DNA of 64,000 nt, taken from NCBI GenBank assembly GCA_934148995.1, contig CAKPDM010000001.1, forward strand, positions 69,073-133,072, read 5' to 3'. Position numbers and translations under genes: made by a program. Below are positions 12,469 to 45,572 of the stretch, in pieces; the first letter of the stretch is position 1, and each line of letters begins with the position of its first letter. The DNA comes from an uncultured Bacilli bacterium. GTDB taxonomy: Bacteria > Bacillota_I > Bacilli_A > RF39 > UBA660. Below the pieces are notes generated by a model. That model had not been told where the DNA came from. It ran no database searches and saw only the letters and a list, made by a program, of their open reading frames with translations.

Positions 12469-12546
12469 AAAAATGCACAATATTTCTGAATTACTGTGCA
12501 TTTTATATTACTTTTACTATTGTTTTTGCTACTCATGTGCATTTTT
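12469..12546. promoter_or_regulatory. Cluster of three TGTGCATTTT copies (one inverted; 10-bp IR AAAATGCACA/TGTGCATTTT with 16-nt spacer)
   Basis: seen directly at 12469-12478, 12495-12504, 12536-12545. Confidence 0.3.
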
Positions 12547-12586
12547 ATGAAAAACGTGCTTCATAAGAAGTTTGAATAATCTTTAA

Positions 12587-12662
12587 TGGTGCCGACTAAA
12601 GGACTCGAACCTTCGACCTACGCGTTACGAATGCGTTGCTCTACCAACTAAGCTAAGTCGGC
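12587..12662 (-). tRNA. tRNA-Thr (anticodon CGU), CCA encoded
   Basis: GCCGACTTAGCTTAGTTGGTAGAGCAACGCATTCGTAACGCGTAGGTCGAAGGTTCGAGTCCTTTAGTCGGCACCA: 7-bp acceptor stem, D and T arms (GGTTCGAGTCC), U33 then CGT anticodon; one A-C mismatch in anticodon stem. Confidence 0.85.
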
Positions 12663-12713
12663 GTAGATAACTCTACTACTTCATTATAGCAGAGTTTTTT
12701 TCTTTTTAAAAGA

Positions 12714-15014
12714 TTATTCTGTTCTAAGTGCTACTACTGGGTCTTTTTTACTAGCCATTTTTGCAGGAATAAAACCACTAAGTACCGTTAGAGAAACACT
12801 AATTAGTAAGAGAATAAGAGCGTGAATAGGATTTAATTTTGCTACAGAAGCTAATCCTGATAAATTTTCTATTATTCTGTTAGCTGGAAATGTTAACAGA
12901 TAAGCAATAACTAATCCTAAAATTCCACTACATAGACCAATTAACATAGTTTCAGCATTAAACACTCTTGTTATATCTTTAGCTCTTGCTCCTAAAGCTC
13001 TTAAAATTCCAATTTCTTTAGTTCTTTCTAAAACTGATATGTAGGTAATTATAGCTATCATTATACTAGATACCACTAAAGATATAGATGAGAATGCAAT
13101 TAAAACTACTGTAATAGCATCCATTATACCACTTGATAAACTACTCATTAACTTAGCCATATCGGTATAAGTTATCTTATCAGTATCTCCTTTATTTTTA
13201 TTATACCTATCTAAGTAACTTGTTATTTTATCTTTACTTTTAAAATCTTTTGGATAAAGATAAATAACTGCTGGAATTTCATCTGCTCCTAAATAAGCAA
13301 GAACATCATTCTTAGTTGTAGTATCATCAAAACTTGCTCCTGTTAAGATATTGTAATCTAATTCTTCTTGTCTCTTTACAATATCACTTTCTTTATTTAT
13401 AGAAATAATCTTATCAACTAATGCTCCTGTATAATAAATAGCAGCTTGATTAGTAAACATTTCTTTATCTTCTTTGCCTCTAATGATGGCTTTTATTTTA
13501 ACAGTTATACTATTTTCACTATTGTACATTTTTTCGTAATTACTATCAGGAATGAAGTTTGCCCCTAATTGTTTATAATAGTCATTATTAGTAATTAGTT
13601 TAATTTCTTTATTTAAGATATCATCAAATGAGATATTTTTAGTTGAATCAAAACCTAAACTTTCAATTAATGATTTATCAACACCATTTTTTGAATCTAT
13701 TGCTAAAATTAAACCTATTTCTTTACTGTCAATACTACCAGCTAATACATCATAATTATCTTCCACTACACCAGTTTCTTTTTCACTAGTTCTAGTTGGA
13801 AATAATTGATATGACATACTGTTCGACATATCTATTTTTTTATAATTATTATCTTTATCCACAGTTACTAAATTAAGTCCAGTCTTTTTAAGATATGATA
13901 TTCCACTCAAAAGATTTTTATCAATACTATCTACGTAGTTTAAATAATCAGAAGTAATATTATTAGTATGAATCATTTTTTCCACAACTGATTCTGTTGG
14001 TTTTACTACCTTTTCATTTGGATATTTATCTTTCTTATCAGTATTAGTTTGCATTTGTTCTTCAAGAGTTGATTCATCCATTTGCATAGCTTGACTACTA
14101 ATAGTTATTGGCATTTGTGATAAAGTGCTTTTCTCAAATTTATCTATTTGAAGTTGAAAACCATTTGATAAAGATAGAATTAAAGCAATACCAATTATTC
14201 CAATTGAAGCAGCAAAAGCTGTTAAAAAGGTTCTACCTTTCTTTGTTTTTATGTTATTAAAAGATAAATGAATTGCTGATAAATAACTTAATACTGTTTT
14301 TCTAATATGAACTTTACCAAGATTTTCTTCTTCACTATTAATAGGATTTGAATCTGATAAAATTTTTCCATCTTTAAATTCTATTATTCTATTAGCATAG
14401 TCTTTAGCAAGCTCTGGATTGTGAGTTACCATTATTACTAATTTATCTTTAGCTATTTCTTTAATAAGATTCATTATCTGAACACTAGTAGCAGAGTCAA
14501 GCGCTCCAGTTGGTTCATCAGCAAGAATTATATCGGGATCATTTACTAAGCTTCGAGCAATAGCTACTCTTTGCATTTGACCACCACTTAATTGATTTGG
14601 TTTTTTATAAGCATGATCTTTTAAACCAACTTTTTCTAAAGCTTCTAAAGCTTTTTCTTTCTTATTTTTTCTTTTATAGCCAGATAAAGTCAAAGCCATT
14701 TCCACATTTTCTAAAACACTTATATGACTTATTAAGTTATAAGACTGAAAAATAAAACCAACACAATTATTTCGATAACTATCCCATTCTGTTGCTTTAA
14801 ACTTTTTTGTACTTTTTCCATTAATAATCAAATCACCAGAATCATATCTATCTAAACCACCAATTATATTTAGTAAAGTGGTTTTTCCACTACCTGAAGG
14901 ACCAAGAATAGCAACAAACTCATTTTTTCGAAAACTTAAATCCACGTTTTTCAAAGCATGTTGAACAAAGTTGCCAGTTTTATAACTTTTATTTATATTT
15001 TTTAATTCTAACAT
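12714..15014 (-). CDS. ABC transporter, fused ATPase-permease of MacB/FtsX type
   Basis: 766 aa; N-terminal Walker A GPSGSGKTT, signature LSGGQMQRVAIAR, Walker B ILADEPT; large extracytoplasmic domain and C-terminal FtsX-like 4-TM permease. Confidence 0.8.
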   Translation of the reverse strand: MLELKNINKSYKTGNFVQHALKNVDLSFRKNEFVAILGPSGSGKTTLLNIIGGLDRYDSGDLIINGKSTKKFKATEWDSYRNNCVGFIFQSYNLISHISVLENVEMALTLSGYKRKNKKEKALEALEKVGLKDHAYKKPNQLSGGQMQRVAIARSLVNDPDIILADEPTGALDSATSVQIMNLIKEIAKDKLVIMVTHNPELAKDYANRIIEFKDGKILSDSNPINSEEENLGKVHIRKTVLSYLSAIHLSFNNIKTKKGRTFLTAFAASIGIIGIALILSLSNGFQLQIDKFEKSTLSQMPITISSQAMQMDESTLEEQMQTNTDKKDKYPNEKVVKPTESVVEKMIHTNNITSDYLNYVDSIDKNLLSGISYLKKTGLNLVTVDKDNNYKKIDMSNSMSYQLFPTRTSEKETGVVEDNYDVLAGSIDSKEIGLILAIDSKNGVDKSLIESLGFDSTKNISFDDILNKEIKLITNNDYYKQLGANFIPDSNYEKMYNSENSITVKIKAIIRGKEDKEMFTNQAAIYYTGALVDKIISINKESDIVKRQEELDYNILTGASFDDTTTKNDVLAYLGADEIPAVIYLYPKDFKSKDKITSYLDRYNKNKGDTDKITYTDMAKLMSSLSSGIMDAITVVLIAFSSISLVVSSIMIAIITYISVLERTKEIGILRALGARAKDITRVFNAETMLIGLCSGILGLVIAYLLTFPANRIIENLSGLASVAKLNPIHALILLLISVSLTVLSGFIPAKMASKKDPVVALRTE

Positions 15015-15096
15015 AATTCACCTTCTCTTTATAAGTATATCATTATTTTACCTAAAATTTTCTCAATTGCAAAAGAAAAAACTGTTTTCCACAGTT

Positions 15097-15534
15097 TTAT
15101 AAGTATTCTTTTAGTTTATCCACAGTTCGTTGTTGAAATTTTAAAAAGTCTTCGGCTAATTTCTTATCTTCCTTGTTTGCTTCTTTAGTAAAGTCTTTGA
15201 TTTTCTTTTCCATTTCAATAGAACCCATTGATACACCTTTAATTAACATATCAGCTATAGCAGAATCGCTATTATCTTTCTTTACTTCCTTACTAATTCC
15301 CATAGTGGACATCATCTTTGCAATAAGTCCTTCCTCTGCTAGTTTGATATTTTCTTTTTTTAGTTGTTCCTTCGCTTTACTTTTAAATTCTTGATATTCT
15401 TTTAAAATATCTTCTGCTAAGCCTTTAATCTTATTATCTCTTTCTTTGAGTTCTTCTAATAAGTGCTCCATCGTATAACTTCCCATCGAAGCATCTTTAT
15501 ATATATGTTCTAATAATTCATTTGTTTCTTTCAT
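15097..15534 (-). CDS. Hypothetical small charged coiled-coil protein
   Basis: 145 aa, K/E-rich, no TM; co-directional with CotF-like genes. Confidence 0.35.
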   Translation of the reverse strand: MKETNELLEHIYKDASMGSYTMEHLLEELKERDNKIKGLAEDILKEYQEFKSKAKEQLKKENIKLAEEGLIAKMMSTMGISKEVKKDNSDSAIADMLIKGVSMGSIEMEKKIKDFTKEANKEDKKLAEDFLKFQQRTVDKLKEYL

Positions 15535-15536
15535 AA

Positions 15537-15869
15537 TTATTCTCCTTCTATTTTTTCTTGTTCTTCTAATAATGTCTGATACTTTTCTGTGACTTTTATC
15601 TCTCCTGCTTCTTCTAATTTATAAAAACCACATCTAAACATAACTTCAAATGTTTCTCTTTGTAGATTTAACAACTTATCATACATTTCTTTATATTTAC
15701 TAAACAATTCTTCATTACTCACTTCTGTTAAAGCTACTGTATAATCTTTAACCATAGCTTTTAGAGTTGTTAATAAGTCACTTATATAATCTTTATCATT
15801 TAGTTCTATTCCTTCTTCCACTTCTATCATAGTATTAGATATTTCTTTATTCATGACTTCCTCCTTCAT
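15537..15869 (-). CDS. Spore coat protein F (Coat_F domain)-like
   Basis: 110 aa; DKDYISDLLTTLKAMVKDYTVALTE...LQRETFEVMFRCGFY closely resembles the CotF/YraD family signature. Confidence 0.5.
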   Translation of the reverse strand: MKEEVMNKEISNTMIEVEEGIELNDKDYISDLLTTLKAMVKDYTVALTEVSNEELFSKYKEMYDKLLNLQRETFEVMFRCGFYKLEEAGEIKVTEKYQTLLEEQEKIEGE

Positions 15870-16077
15870 TTAGAATATCTAGTATGATATTCATATTTTC
15901 TTTAAAAGTATCTCCTGCTTTTTCTATTGTTTCTTCTATTTCTAGATTATTTATCATATCAATTGAATTAATCATTTTTTTATAAGCTAGATAATTCCAA
16001 TTAAACATATCTTCTAAATAATCTAAATCTTTTGTAGAAATAATAGTTGGTACTTTTTCATAATTCATTTTTATCAC
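15847..16077 (-). CDS. CotF-like small protein (partial-length Coat_F domain)
   Basis: 76 aa; STKDLDYLEDMFNWNYLAYKKMINS... similar to first half of Coat_F domain. Confidence 0.35.
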   Translation of the reverse strand: MIKMNYEKVPTIISTKDLDYLEDMFNWNYLAYKKMINSIDMINNLEIEETIEKAGDTFKENMNIILDILNEGGSHE

Positions 16078-16111
16078 CTTCCACTATTATTATTGATAAA
16101 GTTTTTATTTT

Positions 16112-16146
16112 TATACAAAAAATATCAGTTGTAAGCAACTGATACT
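16112..16146 (-). terminator. Rho-independent terminator after PPKTG-ending gene
   Basis: minus strand ATCAGTTGCTTACAACTGAT then ATTTTTTGT. Confidence 0.5.
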
Positions 16147-17206
16147 AAACACCTGTCTTAGGTGGAATTATTTCATCACTTGGTTCTTCATCTACATTAA
16201 TAATTTCTATTTCTTTTGGTTGTTCTTTTGTTAATTGAAATTCAATATAAGCACTAAATTCATAGTTCATATAAGCATTTGTAGTATATGGTCCGTTTAT
16301 ATAGAAGTTCATTGTTGTTAAACTATTTTCACTTGATGGATTAATTGTTCCTAAATCTTTTGTAAAGTAATCATTACCTAATTCTCTATTTCGCATGTAA
16401 CTTCCAATTGCTGATAAATTACTTGTTTTATAATCATATTTTTCATCACCAAACAAGACACTAAATAATACATTGTACCAATAGTCGTAACCAAGTTCAG
16501 CCACTTCTAAATTACTTTCTTTGATAGGATAGTTATTTCCATTAAATAGTTCACTCACTACGTTTGCTGGTAAATCTTCTAGGTTAGTACACTTTAGATT
16601 ATATTTATTATTATAGAAATCTAAATAATATTTGTTTAATTCTTCTATTCCTTTGTAACCATTTTGTTGTAATTGATTTCCTAATGCTTCATCTGTTAAC
16701 ATATCTTTCTTGATACTTTTCTGATATAGAGCTCTTAATGCTGAATTTGCTGTTCTATTTGGTCCAAAAGTTCCAGCTATTACTTGTCCATCAAAGCCTT
16801 TACTATTTTCTAATTTTTCTTCATAATTACTAATATCCATCGTTGATAAGATAAAGCTTTTATCTTTATATAAATATTTATTATTTGATTTATTTATTAT
16901 TTGAATATTAACTTTAATTCCATCTCCTGGAACATAACCATCACTTTCACTAATTGCTTTAAAGATAGTTGGTACTATATTTATAGTATCTTCATTATAA
17001 TCTTCTGGTATTGTATAAGTTGCAGTTACCGAATCAATAACTCTTCTTGATATATGTACATCTATATTTTCCACAATTCCTGTGGATAAAACTTTTTCTG
17101 TCTCTTTTGTTGTTTGATATTTACTTAAGTTTTTTGCAGATACTGGCATACTACTTATCAGTAACATTAATGTTACCAAACTCATAAAAAATAATTTTTT
17201 TATCAT
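16145..17206 (-). CDS. Secreted protein with signal peptide whose extreme C-terminus is PPKTGV (sortase-B-type motif without membrane anchor)
   Basis: 353 aa; MIKKLFFMSLVTLMLLISSMPVSAKN signal; ends ...EEPSDEIIPPKTGV-stop; overlaps sortase B gene by 4 bp. Confidence 0.5.
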   Translation of the reverse strand: MIKKLFFMSLVTLMLLISSMPVSAKNLSKYQTTKETEKVLSTGIVENIDVHISRRVIDSVTATYTIPEDYNEDTINIVPTIFKAISESDGYVPGDGIKVNIQIINKSNNKYLYKDKSFILSTMDISNYEEKLENSKGFDGQVIAGTFGPNRTANSALRALYQKSIKKDMLTDEALGNQLQQNGYKGIEELNKYYLDFYNNKYNLKCTNLEDLPANVVSELFNGNNYPIKESNLEVAELGYDYWYNVLFSVLFGDEKYDYKTSNLSAIGSYMRNRELGNDYFTKDLGTINPSSENSLTTMNFYINGPYTTNAYMNYEFSAYIEFQLTKEQPKEIEIINVDEEPSDEIIPPKTGV

Positions 17207-37635: not shown

Positions 37636-38499
37636 CTATTCTCCTCCAAATACCTGATAAGCATCGGTTACTACAAAGAAAGCATCTGGATCTATTAGAT
37701 GTATTCCTTCTTTGAATTTATAGTATTCCTTAGTTGGGATAACACTCATTAAAACATCTTGGTCTTTATCTTTATAACCACCTGTTGCTTCAAATTTAGT
37801 AACTCCGTGTTTCATTTCTTTTAAAATATATTCTTTTACCTCTTTGTCTTTCTTCGTTATAATGTAGAAAGCTTTAGCATCACTTATTCCTAGTAATACT
37901 CTATCCATAGCCCAAGTAACTAGGTATAAAACTATTAAAGCATACATTAATTTATTAAATCCAAAAGCAAAAAATCCAAGTAAAACAATTAATCCATCAG
38001 TAAATATCATTGCTTGTCCCATTCCAATTTTTAACTTTTTAGAAATAATCATATTTAAAATATCTGTTCCACCAGTAGAAAATCCTGCTTTAAAGATAAG
38101 TCCTGCTCCAACGCCTTGAAGTAATCCTCCAAAAATAGCTACTAAAAGCATTTCGCTTTCACTAAAACTAACATATTTAGTTAAAAAACTTGTTAGATTA
38201 ACAAAAATCGGAAATAATATAGACCCCAAGATACTTAGTCTTGTTTTTTCTTTACCTAAAAATGCATAAGATAAAATTAATAGAAATATATTAGCAATTA
38301 ATATGACATAAGACTGATTAAATTTAAAGAAATGATTTAAAACTATTGATAAACCACTTACTCCACCAGCTACTATGTTATTAGGGGAATAAAATAGATT
38401 AAATGCTAATGCTACTAGTAAACAACCAAAGATAAACTGAACATATCTTTTTATTTTATCATGTTGATAAATATTACTAACGATAGTCTTAGGATTCAT
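37636..38499 (-). CDS. YitT-family membrane protein (DUF161 + C-terminal DUF2179)
   Basis: 287 aa; 5-6 TM helices then soluble ~80-aa C-terminal domain. Confidence 0.6.
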   Translation of the reverse strand: MNPKTIVSNIYQHDKIKRYVQFIFGCLLVALAFNLFYSPNNIVAGGVSGLSIVLNHFFKFNQSYVILIANIFLLILSYAFLGKEKTRLSILGSILFPIFVNLTSFLTKYVSFSESEMLLVAIFGGLLQGVGAGLIFKAGFSTGGTDILNMIISKKLKIGMGQAMIFTDGLIVLLGFFAFGFNKLMYALIVLYLVTWAMDRVLLGISDAKAFYIITKKDKEVKEYILKEMKHGVTKFEATGGYKDKDQDVLMSVIPTKEYYKFKEGIHLIDPDAFFVVTDAYQVFGGE

Positions 38500-39596
38500 T
38501 TTTTGCTCCTTTCAAATATGCTTCCATAAATGGAGTTAAATCTCCATCTAAAACTTTATTGATATTACTTGTTTCATATGATGTTCTATGATCTTTTACC
38601 ATTGAATATGGGTGCATTACATAACTTCTTATTTGTGAACCAAATTCTATATTCATTTGCTCACCTTTTTCTTTTGCTAATTCTTGTTCTTTTTTCTGTT
38701 GTTCTAATACATAAAGTTTAGACTTTAGAACTTGTAATGCGGTCTCTTTATTCTGAATTTGACTTCTTTCATTTTGACAGGTTACTACTATTCCTGTAGG
38801 AAGATGTGTTACTCTTACAGCACTATCTGTTGTGTTTACTCCTTGACCACCTGCTCCAGTTGAACGATACACATCTATTCTTATATCTTTTTCTTCAATG
38901 TTTATATCTATATTTTTATCTATTTCTGGAGTTACATCGACACTAGCAAAGGAAGTATGACGTCTATTAGAAGAATCAAATGGAGACAATCTAACTAAAC
39001 GATGAACACCTTTTTCTTCTTTTAAATATCCATAAGCATAACTACCATCTACTTTGAATGATACACTTTTAATACCAGCTTCTTCTCCTGCTTGGTAGTT
39101 ATATAAGGTTACTTTATAACCTTTTCTTTCACAATATCTTAAGTACATTCTATATAACATTTCTGCCCAGTCACAAGCTTCTGTTCCACCTGCTCCTGAG
39201 TGAATATCAATGGTACAAGAATTTTCATCATATTCGTTATCAAATAGTAAATATATTTCAAATTGATTAACATTTTCTTCTAATTCTTTATAATCAGTTT
39301 CTAAAGTCTTTTCTAATTCTTCATCTTGCTCACTTGATAACAATTCTATCAAATCTAATGCATTTTTAGTATCTCCTTTATATGAAATTATATTCTCTAA
39401 AATTGCATTTATGTTGCTAAGATGAGAAAAGACACTTTCTCTTAATTCTTTATTATCCCAAAATCCTTCTTCTAGCTGTTTTTTTTCTAGTTCTTCTTTT
39501 TCTTGGACTTTTTTATCACAGTCAAAGTAACCTCCAAAGTTCTTCTAGTTTTTCATTTATTTTTTCATAATTTTTCTTAAGTTCAGTTAATTCCAT
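38489..39596 (-). CDS. prfB: Peptide chain release factor 2, expressed via programmed +1 ribosomal frameshift
   Basis: frame-0 MELTELKKNYEKINEKLEELWRLL then in-frame TGA within CTT TGA C; +1 frame continues DCDKKVQEKEELEKKQLEEGFWDN...LIELLSSEQDEE into the 287-aa track ORF; GGQ (STGAGGQGVNTTDSAVR) and SPF motifs present. Confidence 0.85.
39521..39527 (-). other. RF2 autoregulatory frameshift site CTT TGA C with upstream SD-like GGAGG
   Basis: minus strand TTTGGAGGTTACTTTGACTGTG; canonical spacing between SD-like element and slippery CTT. Confidence 0.8.
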
Positions 39597-39620
39597 AAAA
39601 TAATCTCTCCTTTTACTCAC

Positions 39621-39649: not shown

Positions 39650-39749
39650 TTAAATGTATATTTTAATAAATATCACATATTCTATTAGTGGGAAGGGTTC
39701 ACGAAGTAGTGAAGATTCCCATTATATATAGATGATACGTTTAAGTATC

Positions 39750-39790
39750 AAAAAAACAATGTAATCAAAAGATTAGATTGTTTTTTCCTT
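39750..39790. terminator. Bidirectional hairpin AAACAAT-N16-ATTGTTT with flanking A/T runs
   Basis: seen directly; downstream of rhuM remnant on minus strand. Confidence 0.35.
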
Positions 39791-39959
39791 TATTTTAGTT
39801 TTAGTTGCTGCTACTAGTGATAACTCACTATCTAATGAAGAGATAATGAGCCTGCTGATAAAGTATACAAAGATTGCTGTGAACTATATCAGTAATCTTT
39901 TTGTTTTGGTTTTATTTTTGAATACTCTCAAGTACATTTATCTCTTTGCTTTATCATCA

Positions 39960-40797
39960 ATTTTATTACTTATTGCTTTTAAAGTTTTTAAATACTCTTT
40001 TCTCACTGGACTTATCGTTTTTACTTGATATTTCTTATATTTAGCTTTTGATTTTTCTTTTGATTGATTATGACTAATTAAACACGCTTCAACAAGTAAC
40101 TTTTCTACAGTACTAGAGGGAATTGTATCCAGTTACTTAATATAATCATCCATATGCATTATGCATTGGATTATGTCTAATTGCTTGTATTTCAGCAAAA
40201 TATTAAGATTAAATTTTATTTAAATTTTTTAATTATTCTTCTGGTAAATAATTTTTGGCAATTATAACATCACTCATTACTGGCAAATCACCTTTAAAGT
40301 AGTTAAGTCCATAAAAATTTTATCAGAATTTGCTCTTTCATATACTACTTCAGGTGCTTGTATATCTATGACAGCATAATGAAGTTTATTTTAAACAATT
40401 TGAAAAAATTCAATTGATTTACTGTCTTTAGGATTCTAATCTACAGCAGTCGCCCATACTCTAAAATTAATAGCAACTTTTGATTTTATTCTATATCCTA
40501 AAGATATAATCATATCTAAATTGTAATATTTAACTTTTCTTTCAACTTTTAAATTTCCTTCTTTATGAACTGTCAAGAATTCTTTGACAGTTGAGTTTAT
40601 GTCTAATTCTTCTTCATCAAAGATATTTTTAATATACAAACTTATATTTTGTTTATTCATATTATATAAGTGTCAGACCATCTGGTGTTGGGATAACCAT
40701 ACTCTTTCATCCTCAAGTTTTACATCTATTTTTGTCATTCCGTCATCATTTTTATAAATTACAATATTATTGTCATTTTCTTCCATTGTTATACCTC
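39960..40797 (-). pseudogene. RhuM-family (virulence protein RhuM-like) pseudogene with multiple frameshifts/stops
   Basis: fragments in three frames: MEENDNNIVIYKNDDGMTKIDVKLEDERVWLSQHQMV-stop, then MNKQNISLYIKNIF...YYNLDMIISLGYRIKSKVAINFRVWAT (74-aa ORF), then ...IIAKNYLPEE-stop and ...IPSSTVEKLLVEACLISHNQ...; each matches successive parts of RhuM-family proteins. Confidence 0.6.
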
Positions 40798-40862
40798 CAT
40801 TTCTATTTAGAGTTTAAAAGGTGCCAACAAATATAATTATTGTTCGCACCTTTACTTTACAC

Positions 40863-41017
40863 TACTTTCCACAACAGTTCTTATACTTCTTACCACTTCC
40901 GCATGGTCTTTTGTATTGGGGATTTTGGGAGCTTTTGAAAGCACTTGGCTCGTTAATTCGGCACTTGGTTGCACCACAGAGCACTCCGTAGCACTCGGCA
41001 AACCTAGCAGAACTTAT
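40863..41017 (-). other. GC-rich patch encoding a SEC-C-type zinc-finger peptide remnant (...KRPCGSGKKYKNCCGK-stop), no ATG
   Basis: local GC far above surroundings; periodic GCACTYGG repeats at 40941, 40961, 40981, 40991; peptide C-terminus identical in amino acids (not nucleotides) to secA C-terminus. Confidence 0.35.
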
Positions 41018-41034
41018 CTAAAAACTTATCTAAG
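41011..41034. repeat. Left 24-bp direct repeat AACTTATCTAAAAACTTATCTAAG flanking ABC exporter gene
   Basis: 22/24 identical to 42974-42997; itself an internal tandem of AACTTATCTAA. Confidence 0.6.
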
Positions 41035-41036
41035 TT

Positions 41037-42803
41037 TTAATTTAATTTTCCATAATACATATCGCTAAACATTCCATTTTTTTCTATAAGATCATCAAAT
41101 TTACCATCTTCTTCAATCTTACCTTTATTAAGTACTATAATTCTATCACAGTTTTTTAGTGTAGTTAATCTATGTGCTATTGCAATAATTGTTGTATTAT
41201 TTTCTTGTTTCATTTTTTCTATTTCAGCCTGAATATATTTTTCAGATGTATTATCAAGAGCAGAAGTTGCTTCATCTAAAATTAATATTTTAGGCTTTCT
41301 TAAGAATATTCTTGCAATTGCTATTCTTTGTCTTTGTCCACCTGATAAATTGTTTCCTCCTTCAGAAACTAATGAGTCAAATTTATCTGGAAGTCCATTT
41401 ATATAATCATAAATATATGCTCTTTTAGCTGCTTCTTCTACTTCATCAATTGAAACTTCTCTATCTATTCCATATGTTATATTTTCAAATATTGTTCCTG
41501 CAATTAAGAATGGACTTTGTGGTACTAATGCTATTAATTTTGATAAATCTTTTCTTGTTAAATTATCAATATTCTTATCATCAACAATTATTGCTCCATC
41601 TGCTTTTTCTAACTTGCAAATAGATTTTATTAATGAAGATTTACCACAGCCTGAAGGTCCAGCAATTCCAAGATACATTCCTCTTTCTATATCTATATTA
41701 AAGTTATCCAAAATGATTTTATCTTCATTTTCAGAATAATGGAAAGTAATATTTTCCATGTTTATAATCTCATTTGTTGATTTATTTTCTGATTTTGTTT
41801 TTATAGGTAAATATGAGAAATCATTTTCTATTTCTACAATTTTAAATAAATCAGTTGCTAAAACTGTACATTCAGAAACTTCATCAAATATTCTATGTAA
41901 TTCCTCTAGCGGTCTTAGTAATTGATTAAAACATAAATATGCAGTTAATACAGCACCTACTGAAATTATATTTTTAGTTGCTAGATAAGTAGAAATTCCA
42001 ATTACTAACACTGTAAATACAGCTTGATTAATAAATTTTAAACAATCATACATTGCCATCGCTTTATGATGTTTCATTTCTTTTGCTCTTAAAAACTCAC
42101 CCTTATCATCAAATCTTTTAGTTTCAAAGTCTAAACTATCGCAAATTCTTATAACTTCAATACCATTTATAAGTTCAACTATAGTTCCATCCATTCCTGA
42201 TTTACTTTCTAATAGTTCAACCCTAATACCTTTTTGACTTTTTATTTGTTTTAATACAATAAATACTCCGATAGGTATAACTAACAACATGGGCATAGCT
42301 AATGTTATTGGTAATGTTAAAAATATAGTTATAATTGCAGCAATTGCATTAAATATTGCTGGAGCAAAATCCATAAACAACAATTTTTCTAATTTAATAG
42401 TTCCATCTAAACACCTATTAAGCCTTCCATGAATATTTCCAGTCATATTCTTTCTAAAATAAGAAAGCGGAGCCATTAATAATGACTTTATTACCATTCC
42501 TCTTGCTTTCTTTTCTGTTCTTGTTGCTGTATCTTCAATTAATACTCTTCTAAATATTTTTATTACTTCATTTACTACATTTACTATTAATATAAAAACT
42601 AAAAAAGGAATTACTTTATTAAATGATATTTCATTCTTAGTTAATATATCATCTGTAAGCCATCCTATTGCTTTTGGTGTCATTTGAGCAAGTGCAGCAG
42701 AAACTATCATTATAATAATTATTAAAATAAATCTTAATTTCTGTTTTGTATCTAACAATTTATATATTTTCTTCAATACTTTTATTAAATTATTCCTTTT
42801 CAT
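41037..42803 (-). CDS. ABC exporter, fused permease-ATPase (type I exporter, ABCB/MsbA-like)
   Basis: 588 aa; 6 TM N-terminal domain then Walker A GPSGCGKSS, LSGGQRQRIAIAR, Walker B ILILDEATSALD. Confidence 0.8.
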   Translation of the reverse strand: MKRNNLIKVLKKIYKLLDTKQKLRFILIIIIMIVSAALAQMTPKAIGWLTDDILTKNEISFNKVIPFLVFILIVNVVNEVIKIFRRVLIEDTATRTEKKARGMVIKSLLMAPLSYFRKNMTGNIHGRLNRCLDGTIKLEKLLFMDFAPAIFNAIAAIITIFLTLPITLAMPMLLVIPIGVFIVLKQIKSQKGIRVELLESKSGMDGTIVELINGIEVIRICDSLDFETKRFDDKGEFLRAKEMKHHKAMAMYDCLKFINQAVFTVLVIGISTYLATKNIISVGAVLTAYLCFNQLLRPLEELHRIFDEVSECTVLATDLFKIVEIENDFSYLPIKTKSENKSTNEIINMENITFHYSENEDKIILDNFNIDIERGMYLGIAGPSGCGKSSLIKSICKLEKADGAIIVDDKNIDNLTRKDLSKLIALVPQSPFLIAGTIFENITYGIDREVSIDEVEEAAKRAYIYDYINGLPDKFDSLVSEGGNNLSGGQRQRIAIARIFLRKPKILILDEATSALDNTSEKYIQAEIEKMKQENNTTIIAIAHRLTTLKNCDRIIVLNKGKIEEDGKFDDLIEKNGMFSDMYYGKLN

Positions 42804-42950
42804 AACAACTTCCCCCTTTCAAATCTCTTCAACTATAACATATTTTTATTAAATTTTCCAGTCAGCATAAAATACACATATCATTGGGAAAGTGTACATT
42901 TTTATAAAAAAACTTATTTTTCAATACTTTTCTCCAACATGGTGAATTTT

Positions 42951-42997
42951 AGATAAGTTTTATATAAACTAAGAACTTACCTAAAAACTTATCTAAT
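42951..42997. repeat. Right repeat block: inverted AGATAAGTTT plus direct AACTTACCTAAAAACTTATCTAAT
   Basis: seen directly between ABC gene start and secA terminator. Confidence 0.6.
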
Positions 42998-43010
42998 TAA
43001 AAACTGGTAT

Positions 43011-43037
43011 TAAAAAAAGCCCGTAAATACGAGCTTA
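43011..43037 (-). terminator. secA terminator (GCTCGTA-TT-TACGGGC + TTTTTTT)
   Basis: 7-bp stem incl. one G-U, followed by 7 T on minus strand immediately after secA stop. Confidence 0.6.
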
Positions 43038-43040
43038 AAA

Positions 43041-45572
43041 CTACTTACCACAACAATTTTTATACTTTTTACCTGAACCACATGGACAAGGATCATTACG
43101 ACCTACTTTTGTACTCTTCTTAGGTTTCTTTACTGCATCTGATTTGTCATCATTAGTTTGAACATTTTTAGTGACAGGTTTACGTTCAATATTTTGTTGA
43201 ATCTCGGCTTTTAATAAGAAAACACTAACATCATGGTCAATCTTTTGTAACATTTGATCAAATAAATCAAAACCTTCTGTACTATATGCTCTTAATGGAT
43301 CTTCTTGACCATAACTACGTAAATAAATTCCTTCACGTAAATGACTCATTATGTTAATTTGTTCCATCCAGTAATTATCAATAACTTGTAAAGATAGTGC
43401 TTTTTCAAATTCACTAGTAACTTCTACTGGAACATCACTAAGTTTTTCTTCATACTCAGATTTTGCTTTATTATATAGAAAATCAACTATTTCATCATCT
43501 ATCATTGAATTAATTTCATCATCTTTAATATCATCTCTTAGAAGATTCTCATTAGCAAAAGAAACAATTTCTTTCTTATCTTGTTCACTCATATCACCAT
43601 CAACAGTATGAGACTTAACTAAATCAGTAACATAATTTCTCATACATTCAAGTACTTGTTCGTGAACTGAATCACTATCTAGAATCTCATTTCTTCTACC
43701 ATACATTATTTCACGTTGGGTATTCATTACGTCATCATATTGTAGTAATTGTTTTCTAGCATCAAAGTTATTTCCTTCAACTCTCTTTTGAGCGGTTGTA
43801 ATGGCTTTTGAAAAATATTTATTTTGAATAGCTTGATCTCCGAAACCAAAACTAGTCATCATTTCTTTAATCTTTTCACTACCAAAACGAATCATTAAAT
43901 CATCTTCCATAGATACAAAGAATTGTGTAAATCCGGGATCACCTTGACGACCAGAACGTCCTCTTAACTGATTATCAATACGACGTGATTCATGACGTTC
44001 AGTACCAATTACACAAAGCCCACCTAATTCTCTGATTTCATCTGATAACTTAATATCAGTACCACGGCCAGCCATATTAGTAGCGATAGTAACTGATTTA
44101 TGTTGACCAATCTTAGAAATTATTTCTGCTTCTCTTGCATGATTCTTAGCATTTAATATTTCGTGAGGAATCTTTTCTTTCTTTAACAAAGTACTAATCA
44201 ATTCACTAGTTTCAATAGCAATAGTACCAATTAAGACAGGTTGACCTTTGGCATATCTTTCTTTTACTTCATTAATAATTGCTTTATATTTAGCATTTTT
44301 AGTAGCAAATACTAAATCAGGAGCATCAATTCTAGCAACTGGTTTATTTGTAGGAATACAAATTACATACATATTATAAATATCACGGAATTCTTCCTCT
44401 TCTGTTTTAGCAGTACCAGTCATACCTGATAATTTCTTATACATTCTAAATAAGTTCTGGAAAGTTATAGTAGCTAAAGTCTTTGTCTCTTGATTAATAC
44501 GAACTCCTTCTTTAGCTTCAATTGCTTGATGAAGTCCATCACTATAGGCACGACCTTTCATCAAACGACCTGTAAATTGGTCTACTATAACAACTTCTCC
44601 ATCTTGAACAACATAATCAACATCTAATTTCATTGAATAATTTGCTCTTAAAGCTTGATTAATATAATGAACTAAAGTAGCATTTTCTACTTCATAAAGA
44701 TTTTTAACTCTAAAGGCTTTTTCTGCTTTCTCACTACCTTCATCTGTTAGTGTTACACTTTTTGTAGTTTCATCATATAAGTAATCAACATCATCCTTTA
44801 AACTCTTTACAAAGCTATCAGCATCTTGATAAAGATTAGCACTAACTAACTGTCCTCCAGAAATAATTAATGGAGTTCTTGCTTCATCGATTAAAACTGA
44901 ATCTACTTCATCAACGATAGCAAAATTTAATGGTCTTTGAACTCTGTCTTCTTTTCTAATAACCATATTATCTCTTAGATAATCAAATCCAATTTCATTA
45001 TTAGTAGAATATAAAATATCACAAGCATAAGCTTCCTGCTTTTCTTTTGGACTTAGTTCTCTTGTATTAACTCCTACTGTTAAACCTAAAAATCTATGAA
45101 TGCCACCCATCCATTCTGCATCACGAGTAGCTAAGTATTCATTAACAGTAATAATATGAACACCTTTTCCGTCTAAGGCATTTAAATAAGCTGGTAATAC
45201 TGATGTTAAAGTTTTACCTTCACCAGTTTTCATTTCTGCTATATTACCATAGTGAATAGCTAAAGCACCAACTATTTGAACATAGAAAGGTTTTTCTCCA
45301 ATAACACGATAAGCAGCTTCTCTTGCTGTTGCAAAAGCTTCTACTAATATATCTTCTAATGTTTCACCATTTGCTAAACGTTTCTTAAATTCTTCTGTTT
45401 TATTTTTTAACTCTTCATCTGATAATTTTTGGTATTCTTCATCAAGTGCAACTATTTTATCAGCTAAAGATTCAAATTTTTTTAATTCTTTATATTCATG
45501 ATCAAACAATCTTGTAAATATTCCCATTGTAAACATCTCCTCAAGGATTATTGTAACAAAAAAAGGAGACAA
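43041..45572 (-). CDS. secA: Preprotein translocase ATPase SecA
   Basis: 843 aa; DEAD-like motor motifs, C-terminal zinc-binding CPCGSGKKYKNCCGK. Confidence 0.9.
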   Translation of the reverse strand: MSPFFVTIILEEMFTMGIFTRLFDHEYKELKKFESLADKIVALDEEYQKLSDEELKNKTEEFKKRLANGETLEDILVEAFATAREAAYRVIGEKPFYVQIVGALAIHYGNIAEMKTGEGKTLTSVLPAYLNALDGKGVHIITVNEYLATRDAEWMGGIHRFLGLTVGVNTRELSPKEKQEAYACDILYSTNNEIGFDYLRDNMVIRKEDRVQRPLNFAIVDEVDSVLIDEARTPLIISGGQLVSANLYQDADSFVKSLKDDVDYLYDETTKSVTLTDEGSEKAEKAFRVKNLYEVENATLVHYINQALRANYSMKLDVDYVVQDGEVVIVDQFTGRLMKGRAYSDGLHQAIEAKEGVRINQETKTLATITFQNLFRMYKKLSGMTGTAKTEEEEFRDIYNMYVICIPTNKPVARIDAPDLVFATKNAKYKAIINEVKERYAKGQPVLIGTIAIETSELISTLLKKEKIPHEILNAKNHAREAEIISKIGQHKSVTIATNMAGRGTDIKLSDEIRELGGLCVIGTERHESRRIDNQLRGRSGRQGDPGFTQFFVSMEDDLMIRFGSEKIKEMMTSFGFGDQAIQNKYFSKAITTAQKRVEGNNFDARKQLLQYDDVMNTQREIMYGRRNEILDSDSVHEQVLECMRNYVTDLVKSHTVDGDMSEQDKKEIVSFANENLLRDDIKDDEINSMIDDEIVDFLYNKAKSEYEEKLSDVPVEVTSEFEKALSLQVIDNYWMEQINIMSHLREGIYLRSYGQEDPLRAYSTEGFDLFDQMLQKIDHDVSVFLLKAEIQQNIERKPVTKNVQTNDDKSDAVKKPKKSTKVGRNDPCPCGSGKKYKNCCGK

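Follow-up and report, generated by a model that had tools for sequence, protein, structure and literature searches.

The att sites of lambda- and Tn916-type systems are read by heterobivalent tyrosine integrases bearing an N-terminal arm-binding domain (Pfam PF14657, Arm-DNA-bind_4), and the excisionase sites of lambda-type systems are tandem direct repeats located near the core. In staphylococci, arrays of staphylococcal cassette chromosome mec (SCCmec) and pseudo-SCC elements occupy the 3′ end of rlmH (orfX), a process that relies on serine recombinases (Ccr). Cis-mobilizable elements (CIMEs) and the tandem accretion of islands derived from integrative and conjugative elements (ICEs) or integrative and mobilizable elements (IMEs) are typified by ICESt1/ICESt3 at the 3′ end of fda in Streptococcus thermophilus (PMC5704250), and genomic islands of Dehalococcoides are reported to integrate at ssrA, the gene for transfer-messenger RNA (tmRNA; PMC3146451). 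The locus considered here lies in a 64-kb stretch of contig CAKPDM010000001.1 from an uncultured Bacilli bacterium (hereafter the window), where an islet of ~2.2 kb (40862-43082) bearing a single ABC exporter gene is found between secA and prfB (Table 1). This islet is probably an integrative element without its own integrase, residing in the 3′ end of secA. The kind of element is familiar, and the open-access literature was not found to report secA as a target gene or attachment site.

The boundaries of the islet are given by a long direct repeat that was missed by the sequence-only reading, an earlier annotation of the same DNA that had drawn attention to a pair of 24-nt repeats (24-mers) on either side of the exporter gene. 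The longer repeat lies outside these 24-mers, at 40855-40906 and 43034-43085 (52 nt, 79% identity), and represents a second copy of the secA 3′ end located 2.18 kb downstream on the same strand. At its center is a 42-nt core that encodes the SEC-C zinc motif CGSGKKYKNCCGK, stop codon included. Core 1, at the end of secA, and core 2, at the far end of the islet, agree at 33 of 42 nt; none of the nine differences changes a residue, a TCA/AGT serine switch being among them. The secA gene is intact and full length with its SEC-C domain retained; its listed open reading frame (ORF) starts at a TTG codon at 45572, and the start Met of related proteins corresponds to approximately 45527. Read along the secA strand, the arrangement is secA with core 1, the terminator, a 24-mer, an inverted 11-mer, the promoter and the ABC gene, followed by the second 24-mer, a 107-nt segment, core 2, a hairpin, a RhuM pseudogene with associated debris and, finally, prfB. 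A direct repeat of the target gene 3′ end is thus present at both boundaries, and a replacement 3′ end that keeps the target intact is indicated by the full-length secA and by a 97.8% identical junction in a comparison locus (L032, discussed below). The islet retains both cores and both arm arrays and bears no integration or transfer genes, which is the structural hallmark of a CIME. Searches by tblastn with integrases and by phmmer detected no integrase in the islet or elsewhere in the 64-kb window, and the islet can therefore be regarded as an orphan (CIME-like) element. Likewise, no circular contig, attP junction or terminal redundancy for the islet was found among the metagenome loci.

Table 1. 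Features of the secA-prfB interval and its flanking genes
Feature	Position	Strand	Description
prfB (RF2)	38489..39596	(-)	Programmed +1 frameshift site; conserved far flank of the hotspot
Decayed second island	39735..40861	(-)	RhuM-family pseudogene and ORF debris
Hairpin AAAGGTGCGAACAAT...TTGTTGGCACCTTT	40818..40855	(-)	Opens the next, decayed island
Core 2 (attR core), TGCGGAAGTGGTAAGAAGTATAAGAACTGTTGTGGAAAGTAG	40862..40903	(-)	Displaced secA 3′ end; same 13 residues and stop
'P arm' segment of attR	40904..41010	(-)	From arm pair to core; relatively G+C-rich, AGTGCT/AAGTGC repeats, non-coding
Left 24-mer, AACTTATCTAAAAACTTATCTAAG	41011-41034	(-)	Candidate attR arm-type pair
Cargo gene, ABC exporter	41037..42803	(-)	588-aa type I ABC exporter half-transporter; ABC_membrane and ABC_tran domains
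ABC promoter-like site	42832..42860	(-)	TGGAAA, 17 nt, TG-TATAGT; extended -10
Inverted third 11-mer copy	42949-42959	(+)	Reads TTAGATAAGTT on the + strand; located 14 nt inward of the attL pair
Right 24-mer, AACTTACCTAAAAACTTATCTAAT	42974-42997	(-)	Candidate attL arm-type pair
secA intrinsic terminator hairpin	43017..43036	(-)	Belongs to the left end of the element; kept with the core in L032
Core 1 (attL core), TGTGGTTCAGGTAAAAAGTATAAAAATTGTTGTGGTAAGTAG	43041..43082	(-)	Last 13 codons of secA and stop
secA	43041..45572	(-)	SecA_DEAD, SecA_PP_bind, SecA_SW and SEC-C domains; ends in PCPCGSGKKYKNCCGK followed by the stop codon

The 24-mers themselves are genuine features of the locus. A 23-mer search permitting up to 3 mismatches finds the two 24-mer sites and no others in the window, and no match was returned in the 100 shuffles against which repeat uniqueness was tested; a repeat finder extends the pair to 25 nt (41009-41033 versus 42972-42996, 96% identity). 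Each 24-mer is a tandem pair of 11-nt units with a 12-bp period. On the secA strand, the left 24-mer reads TTAGATAAGTT-T-TTAGATAAGTT, continues into a conserved CTGCTAGG and ends 107 nt ahead of core 2, and the right 24-mer reads TTAGATAAGTT-T-TTAGGTAAGTT and starts 44 nt past the secA stop codon. Exact copies of AACTTATCTAA number four in the window, all at the two 24-mer spots, where a one-mismatch copy at 42974 is also located. The search for further copies proposed by the sequence-only reading, made over the 64-kb window, finds the 11-mer confined to these two spots, and the concern raised with it, that the 24-mer could be a generic AT-rich repeat present at many loci, does not hold. That reading was also right in having the repeats bracket exactly one gene with its promoter (the intact 588-aa ORF and a promoter-like site lie between them) and in placing the right repeat between the secA terminator (43036-43017) and the ABC promoter (42860-42832). 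The inverted copy that it reported does exist, as an 11-mer at 42949-42959, and inner copies comparable to it are present in L037, L002 and L104 (L-numbers such as L001 or L110 are labels of comparison loci).

Judged from their sequence and placement, the 24-mers are probably integrase-binding (arm-type) arrays positioned just inside both ends of an integrase-less mobile islet. The sequence-only reading had favored another arrangement, in which the 24-mers are themselves the crossover site or duplicated att core and the element spans from one 24-mer to the other, as might be expected of direct repeats identical at 22 of 24 positions that bracket one gene and its promoter. Comparison with other genomes makes this arrangement very unlikely. 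The ABC promoter, gene, arm pair and adjoining 104-nt segment are 98.6% identical over 1993 nt in L110, a locus whose secA and prfB share 71% and 66% identity, respectively, with those of the window. Copies of the ABC gene that are 98-99% identical occur in L110, L171, L177 and L196; identity with L110, L177 and L171 begins just upstream of, or within, the ABC promoter-like site, and in L110 and L171 it holds at 98% through the 104-nt segment up to the core. In L110, the high identity reaches the core and falls within it, the distal core of that locus resembling its own secA end (terminating in GKNK and the stop codon). At the other end of the islet, positions 17071-17159 of L032 are 97.8% identical to window positions 42994-43082, a stretch that spans the core and terminator and enters the right 24-mer. 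In L032 this stretch follows a different island, and the SecA protein of that locus is only ~75% identical to that of the window. As the DNA between the 24-mers and the cores travels with the element, the boundary duplication is the last 42 nt of secA and not the 24-mers. The two mismatches with L032 are confined to the first 12 nt of the core, for which reason a crossover at its left edge is inferred, and from approximately its 12th base on, core 1 appears to derive from the element.

Further comparisons bear on the 24-mers as crossover sites. In L196 and L177, identity stops 16-20 nt past the left 24-mer, as would suit an element ending there, but these breakpoints fall within a block conserved throughout the family (the arms together with CTGCTAGG), where exchange between homologous islets is to be expected. 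L177 is a chimera, with a left end of the TTAGAACCATT type and an ABC-type right end. Moreover, the arm pair and its adjoining segment are conserved as one block in more than 30 loci, and an arrangement of core and arm followed by arm and core fits attL and attR rather than a simple duplication. In L171, positions 1-89 carry a further copy of the final 80 nt of the ABC gene with the beginning of the arm pair, which matches window positions 41029-41117 at 96.6% identity; this repeated stretch lies ~900 nt beyond the distal core of the islet, and the intervening DNA is not ABC-like.

The wider setting of secA was examined in 80 loci of uncultured gut Bacilli genomes found with the SecA protein (the relatives), the best of which, L001 and L002, share 95% SecA identity with the window, compared with 83% for Candidatus Onthousia. 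The distance from secA to prfB in these relatives is 2.8-8.6 kb where prfB is in range, and the contents of the gap differ, in agreement with the sequence-only reading of the interval as a variable accessory hotspot. At the DNA level, the ~85% identity of the window with L001 and L002 breaks off exactly at the secA stop codon, and L002 carries a different cargo with a related right end in the slot occupied here by the ABC islet. No orthologue of the ABC gene was found in any of the 80 relatives, so that gene-less relatives are the rule, contrary to the possibility considered earlier that all would carry both gene and repeats. A near-identical islet in the distant host L110, set against the absence of the ABC gene from the 80 relatives and the direct junction of secA with the next island in L029 and L059, is evidence of mobility, and the claim that the ABC gene is a site-specifically inserted and horizontally acquired cassette is borne out by these comparisons. 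In L001, no arm repeats follow secA; the region 12540-16623 bears instead three sizeable ORFs (351, 488 and 402 aa) resembling a gene cluster of the defence type.

The end of secA is used as an integration site in many of these genomes. In 17 of the 80 relatives, the strand that encodes secA bears one or two extra copies of CGSGKKYKxCCGK followed by a stop codon, at a distance of 0.7-8 kb downstream of the gene. Many of these are frames of 13-16 codons that have no start codon, and the extra SEC-C copies are thus displaced gene ends and not genes. Tyrosine integrases, detected by tblastn with integrase ORFs, occur downstream of secA in 28 of the 80, and in 12 relatives an intact integrase gene (434-448 aa) starts 149-258 nt past the secA stop codon. 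Crude peptide patterns for tyrosine and serine recombinases gave 0 matches, and such patterns miss the YDLRGS and HDFRHS variants seen in these integrases. The enzymes found at the secA site display Arm-DNA-bind_4, Phage_int_SAM_3 and Phage_integrase domains, with Arm-DNA-bind_4 detected in those of the L032/L077 type. In four genomes the integrase is broken into two ORFs at one common point, after approximately residue 170 (L032:14089-15332, L077:20895-22162, L052:13544-14775 and L021:14255-15300), for which a pseudogene passed on by descent, an assembly problem that recurs or a programmed event could account. In three other contigs (L111:5190-5260, L137:2880-2950 and L144:590-650), the junction GCTAC/TTACAATTTTTAGGTAAT links an integrase N-terminal fragment of 145 aa with the middle of a left att site of the TTAGATAAGTT type, representing a deletion at a short string common to both.

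It could also be supposed that no mobile cassette is involved, the 3′ region of secA having been duplicated locally and its SEC-C frame being a real small gene. A frame of 40 codons at 40862-40984, which ends in PCGSGKKYKNCCGK and the stop codon, does score as a SEC-C motif in Pfam, and full-length counterparts are found in L002, L048 and L052. The segment upstream of the core is, however, free of coding constraint. Its variable sites are spread equally over the codon positions (29/34, 29/35 and 30/35), as opposed to 7/15, 7/15 and 14/15 in the core, and relatives show indels of 1 and 10 nt. The P-arm segment was accordingly rejected as a small gene, and the 40-aa frame is a by-product of this non-coding sequence. 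Counterparts of the frame often have no start codon or are frameshifted, the ABC block and attR are 98-99% identical in a distant host, and integrases and a prophage occupy the same site in related genomes, all of which renders a local duplication exceedingly improbable. A role of the P-arm segment as an RNA was likewise rejected, with 0 Rfam matches and no conserved fold; the single-sequence fold z-score of -2.8 stems mostly from the terminal hairpin. The AGTGCT/AAGTGC motifs of 40904-41010 are conserved across the arm-type subfamilies and could be bound by additional proteins, such as an excisionase or a host factor.

Repeats resembling those of the window are a general feature of the site. 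In most relatives, a tandem repeat with an 11-bp period and a family-specific unit is found 55-95 nt past the secA stop codon. The units that accompany integrase-bearing islands are TTTGTCCACAT, TTTGTGTGCA, TGTCTACATTT and TTTGTGCACAT, and those of other islands are TTAGATAAGTT, TTAGATACCTT, TTAGAGCCA, TGTTTGCAAA and AATGTTTGTAA. Where both ends of an island are visible, its own unit recurs ~105-150 nt before the distal core. In 21 islands, the longest string shared by cognate ends averaged 10.8 nt versus 8.2 nt for non-cognate ends, a mean reached in none of the 10,000 permutations used to test the matching of island ends. In the family to which the window belongs, the two tandem copies covary from one subfamily to the next (AAGTT, ACGTT, ACCTT). 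Metagenome contigs were scanned with the pattern TTAGATAAGTT(N0-1)TTAGRTAAG, which at least 120 contigs match, chiefly from human gut and rumen samples, and cores in these contigs were counted with a strict SEC-C peptide pattern. In 46 of 62 cases, a core start lies 116-134 nt upstream of the period-11 form of the array (at 123-124 nt in 42 of these), and the period-12 form has one 120-148 nt downstream in 46 of 85. At least 27 ordered pairs, period 11 followed by period 12, enclose 0.44-2.5 kb, and at least four pairs in the reverse order, 254-272 nt apart, represent the junctions of tandem islets. Alignment of 48 left and 49 right ends reveals conservation that extends from the core as far as the arm pair and is lost immediately inside the pair.

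The cargo enclosed by these arrays is unrelated from islet to islet. Between TTAGATAAGTT pairs are found the ABC exporter of the window, a DUF4379 zinc-ribbon protein (L002), a DUF5677 protein with a lipoprotein (L037), a methyltransferase (L043) and a methionyl-tRNA synthetase (MetRS; L052), and in the related TTAGATACCTT subfamily the cargo of L048 is a class I lysyl-tRNA synthetase (LysRS). In the last two, the synthetase is the sole cargo of a mini-islet (L052:17417-19048, metG model, 482 bits, above the cut-off; L048:12995-14566, lysS_arch, 411 bits). This diversity bears on a second proposal of the sequence-only reading, a repeated operator array, under which the 24-mers would bind a regulator of the ABC exporter and of the small downstream frame. 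Tandem and inverted copies do lie upstream of the ABC promoter, and a second array precedes the 40-aa SEC-C frame. The arrays nevertheless surround unrelated genes, remain at a fixed distance from the cores and at variable distances from the starts of the cargo genes and their promoters, and in the window end 114 nt upstream of the ABC -35 hexamer; no regulator gene was found in the islet, and the frame that would be regulated is the one devoid of coding constraint. In the phage locus L203, described next, the pair is located past the integrase gene at its 3′ end. An operator function is thus highly improbable. As arm-type sites require, the repeats are located at set distances inside both att arms, the same unit is present at both ends, and the unit is specific to the integrase lineage.

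The sole integrase found adjoining TTAGATAAGTT arms, a candidate for the cognate enzyme, belongs to the IMG/VR contig behind L203, L204 and L206, which displays the secA end, one islet of the TTAGATACCTT type, a core, TTAGATAAGTT in two copies and the integrase. In L203, this tyrosine-type enzyme of 387 aa is encoded ~50 nt past the TTAGATAAGTT pair on the opposite strand, and is followed by an S24 CI-like repressor, Cro, Erf, an exonuclease, NinB, a replisome organiser and an HNH endonuclease; the L203/L204 element is a temperate phage integrated at secA. An integrase 53% identical to that of L203 is borne by the 9.2-kb element of L104, whose two ends both bear TTAGAACCATT pairs, the one on the right lying ~125 nt ahead of a core. 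The arm-domain score of this enzyme, 21.8 bits, is just below the cut-off of 22.3 bits. As read from translations, L104:5889-9703 encodes two DNA methyltransferases, a DpnII-like endonuclease and an OLD-like ATPase, accompanied by repressor, replication and HNH genes, and the element looks like a phage satellite with defence cargo. Units of the TTTGTnnACA type accompany integrases of the L003/L004/L032 type, and those of the TTAGAnnnn type accompany integrases of the L203/L104 type. The repeat unit shifts with the integrase lineage and therefore behaves as expected of arm-type sites read by the N-terminal domain.

Several observations count against this assignment of the 24-mers and against the islet as interpreted here. 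The assignment of arm sites is based on position, periodicity and covariation, and such tandem repeats could bind an excisionase or other accessory protein instead. A single integrase-bearing element, the L203/L204 phage, ties the TTAGATAAGTT arms to an enzyme; its far end was not recovered, with no attR in the 20 kb examined of the 30-kb contig, and the Pfam arm-domain model finds no match in the L203 integrase. The period-12 form is without a core, by the strict peptide pattern, in 38 of 85 cases. The attL of the window is an unusual short variant, with arms 44 nt rather than ~82 nt past the stop codon and a period of 12 rather than 11. L196 has the ABC gene and arm repeats but no flanking cores, and rearranged contexts thus exist. 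Finally, no excision product was seen, nor an empty site in the same species.

Of these, the binding of an accessory protein deserves consideration as a variant of the islet model, in which the repeats would be occupied by an excisionase or directionality factor or by a host nucleoid protein. It would be consistent with the tandem direct repeats near the core that serve lambda-type excisionases and with the undetected arm-binding domain of the L203 integrase. However, each island bears the repeats at its two ends, whereas an excisionase typically has its sites on one arm only; the unit covaries with the integrase lineage, as described above; and these lineages carry, or nearly score for, Arm-DNA-bind_4. 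This variant is consequently considered unlikely.

With the 24-mers taken as arm-type sites, the islet would have arisen when a circular element bearing its own copy of the 42-nt core recombined with the SEC-C codons of secA. The gene would thereafter end in element-borne codons, stop and terminator, and comparisons suggest that its original end would have been displaced to 40862-40903. A heterobivalent tyrosine integrase would hold the 11-mers by its N-terminal arm domain and the core by its catalytic and core-binding domains, bridging arm and core sites and so building the recombination complex. The cognate integrase would act in trans, if at all. The islet is probably fixed, or immobile, in this genome, given that no integrase lies within 64 kb and that the two cores are mismatched at 9 of 42 positions, among them the left edge at which the crossover appears to have taken place.

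The cargo of the islet is its sole intact gene, and an exact look-up of the encoded protein returned no record. Its best NCBIfam match is MsbA-like (331 bits), below all curated cut-offs, and no specific function is assigned; it would appear to be a generic MsbA-like half-transporter served by its own promoter-like site. Two further classes of element were considered and rejected for the islet. A transposon or miniature inverted-repeat transposable element (MITE) is at odds with boundary repeats that are direct and 42 nt in length, and no transposase-like ORF was found in 39700-43040. An integron gene cassette is at odds with the tandem direct 11-mers and the promoter-like site of the cargo, and no integron integrase was found.

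The ABC islet is one slot of a tandem array, and a decayed RhuM island fills the rest of the secA-prfB gap. Its pseudogene (40436-40786) is interrupted by stop codons and matches Virulence_RhuM with an E-value of 5.8e-17. In L029 and L059, an intact RhuM island directly follows secA, which represents an empty site relative to the ABC islet. Between the pseudogene and prfB, the debris at 39942-40058 is 92% identical to L047 13748-13864, a stretch that just precedes an integrase N-terminal fragment in that locus, and on account of this match the decayed island may once have carried an integrase. The segment 39733-39656 upstream of prfB is conserved in several relatives. The prfB gene itself presents a canonical RF2 frameshift site at 39520-39600 (-), with GGAGG followed by CTT TGA C, and is accordingly divided into a short first frame (39522-39620) and a 287-aa frame (38489-39352).

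These observations single out the last 42 nt of secA, the codons of the SEC-C zinc motif, as a site at which integration is widespread in a clade of uncultured gut and rumen Bacilli with small genomes. For metagenome-assembled genomes of this clade, where mobile-element annotation is almost nil, the duplicated core and the tandem 11-mers at fixed offsets provide rules by which such elements may be delimited, and the 40-aa 'SEC-C protein' frames downstream of secA are to be annotated as by-products of att sites rather than as genes. The cargo of the site comprises the ABC exporter, MetRS and LysRS genes that may be additional copies, methyltransferases, and defence genes of the restriction-modification and OLD-like kinds, making it a practical spot at which to look for strain-variable traits and for gene flow driven by phages and satellites. 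The arm repeats and their diverged integrases also represent a natural series for the evolution of arm-site specificity. Orphan islets with TTAGATAAGTT arms far outnumber integrase-bearing elements, with 27 pairs versus one phage among the matches listed. It is tempting, if rather doubtful, to speculate that the mini-islets, rather than being wreckage, form an active integron-like cassette system, its units being excised, exchanged and stacked at the SEC-C codons of secA by integrases that phages or satellites supply in trans, and that the diversity of arm repeats keeps compatible pools separate.

Among the known systems, integron cassettes and SCCmec-type arrays offer analogies only. Integron cassettes are also small, mostly single-gene units of unrelated cargo that are bounded by recombination sites and depend on an integrase encoded elsewhere, but the islets have no palindromic attC, attI or IntI and bear instead lambda-type attL and attR sites with a 42-nt coding core and a promoter for the cargo. 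SCCmec and its relatives likewise form arrays of elements at the 3′ end of one housekeeping gene, bounded by a repeat of the gene end and including recombinase-less members with accessory or resistance genes, whereas they employ Ccr serine recombinases and no arm-type repeats and the enzymes of the secA site are tyrosine integrases. The ssrA islands of Dehalococcoides are comparable as horizontally acquired islands integrated site-specifically at the end of a conserved single-copy gene, and differ in having an RNA gene as target and in belonging to another phylum. Closer is the likeness in layout to the att sites of lambda and Tn916, since repeats of ~11 bp are located tens to ~150 bp from the core inside both ends, and the integrases possess arm-binding, SAM-like core-binding and catalytic domains and are encoded next to one att site; the units and core of the islet are, however, unrelated in sequence to theirs, and the islet has no integrase. 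CIMEs differ from the islet in several respects: its target, the SEC-C motif of secA, was not found reported in the open-access literature; its integrase-bearing relatives are a temperate phage and a 9-kb satellite-like element rather than conjugative elements, with no conjugation genes seen; and the islets of this site are tiny (0.44-2.5 kb between arm pairs) and mostly of a single gene. In structure, the islet resembles a CIME in keeping both attL and attR in the 3′ end of a conserved protein-coding gene with the integration genes absent, and in standing in tandem with a decayed element, each of the two bounded by a copy of the target gene's terminus.

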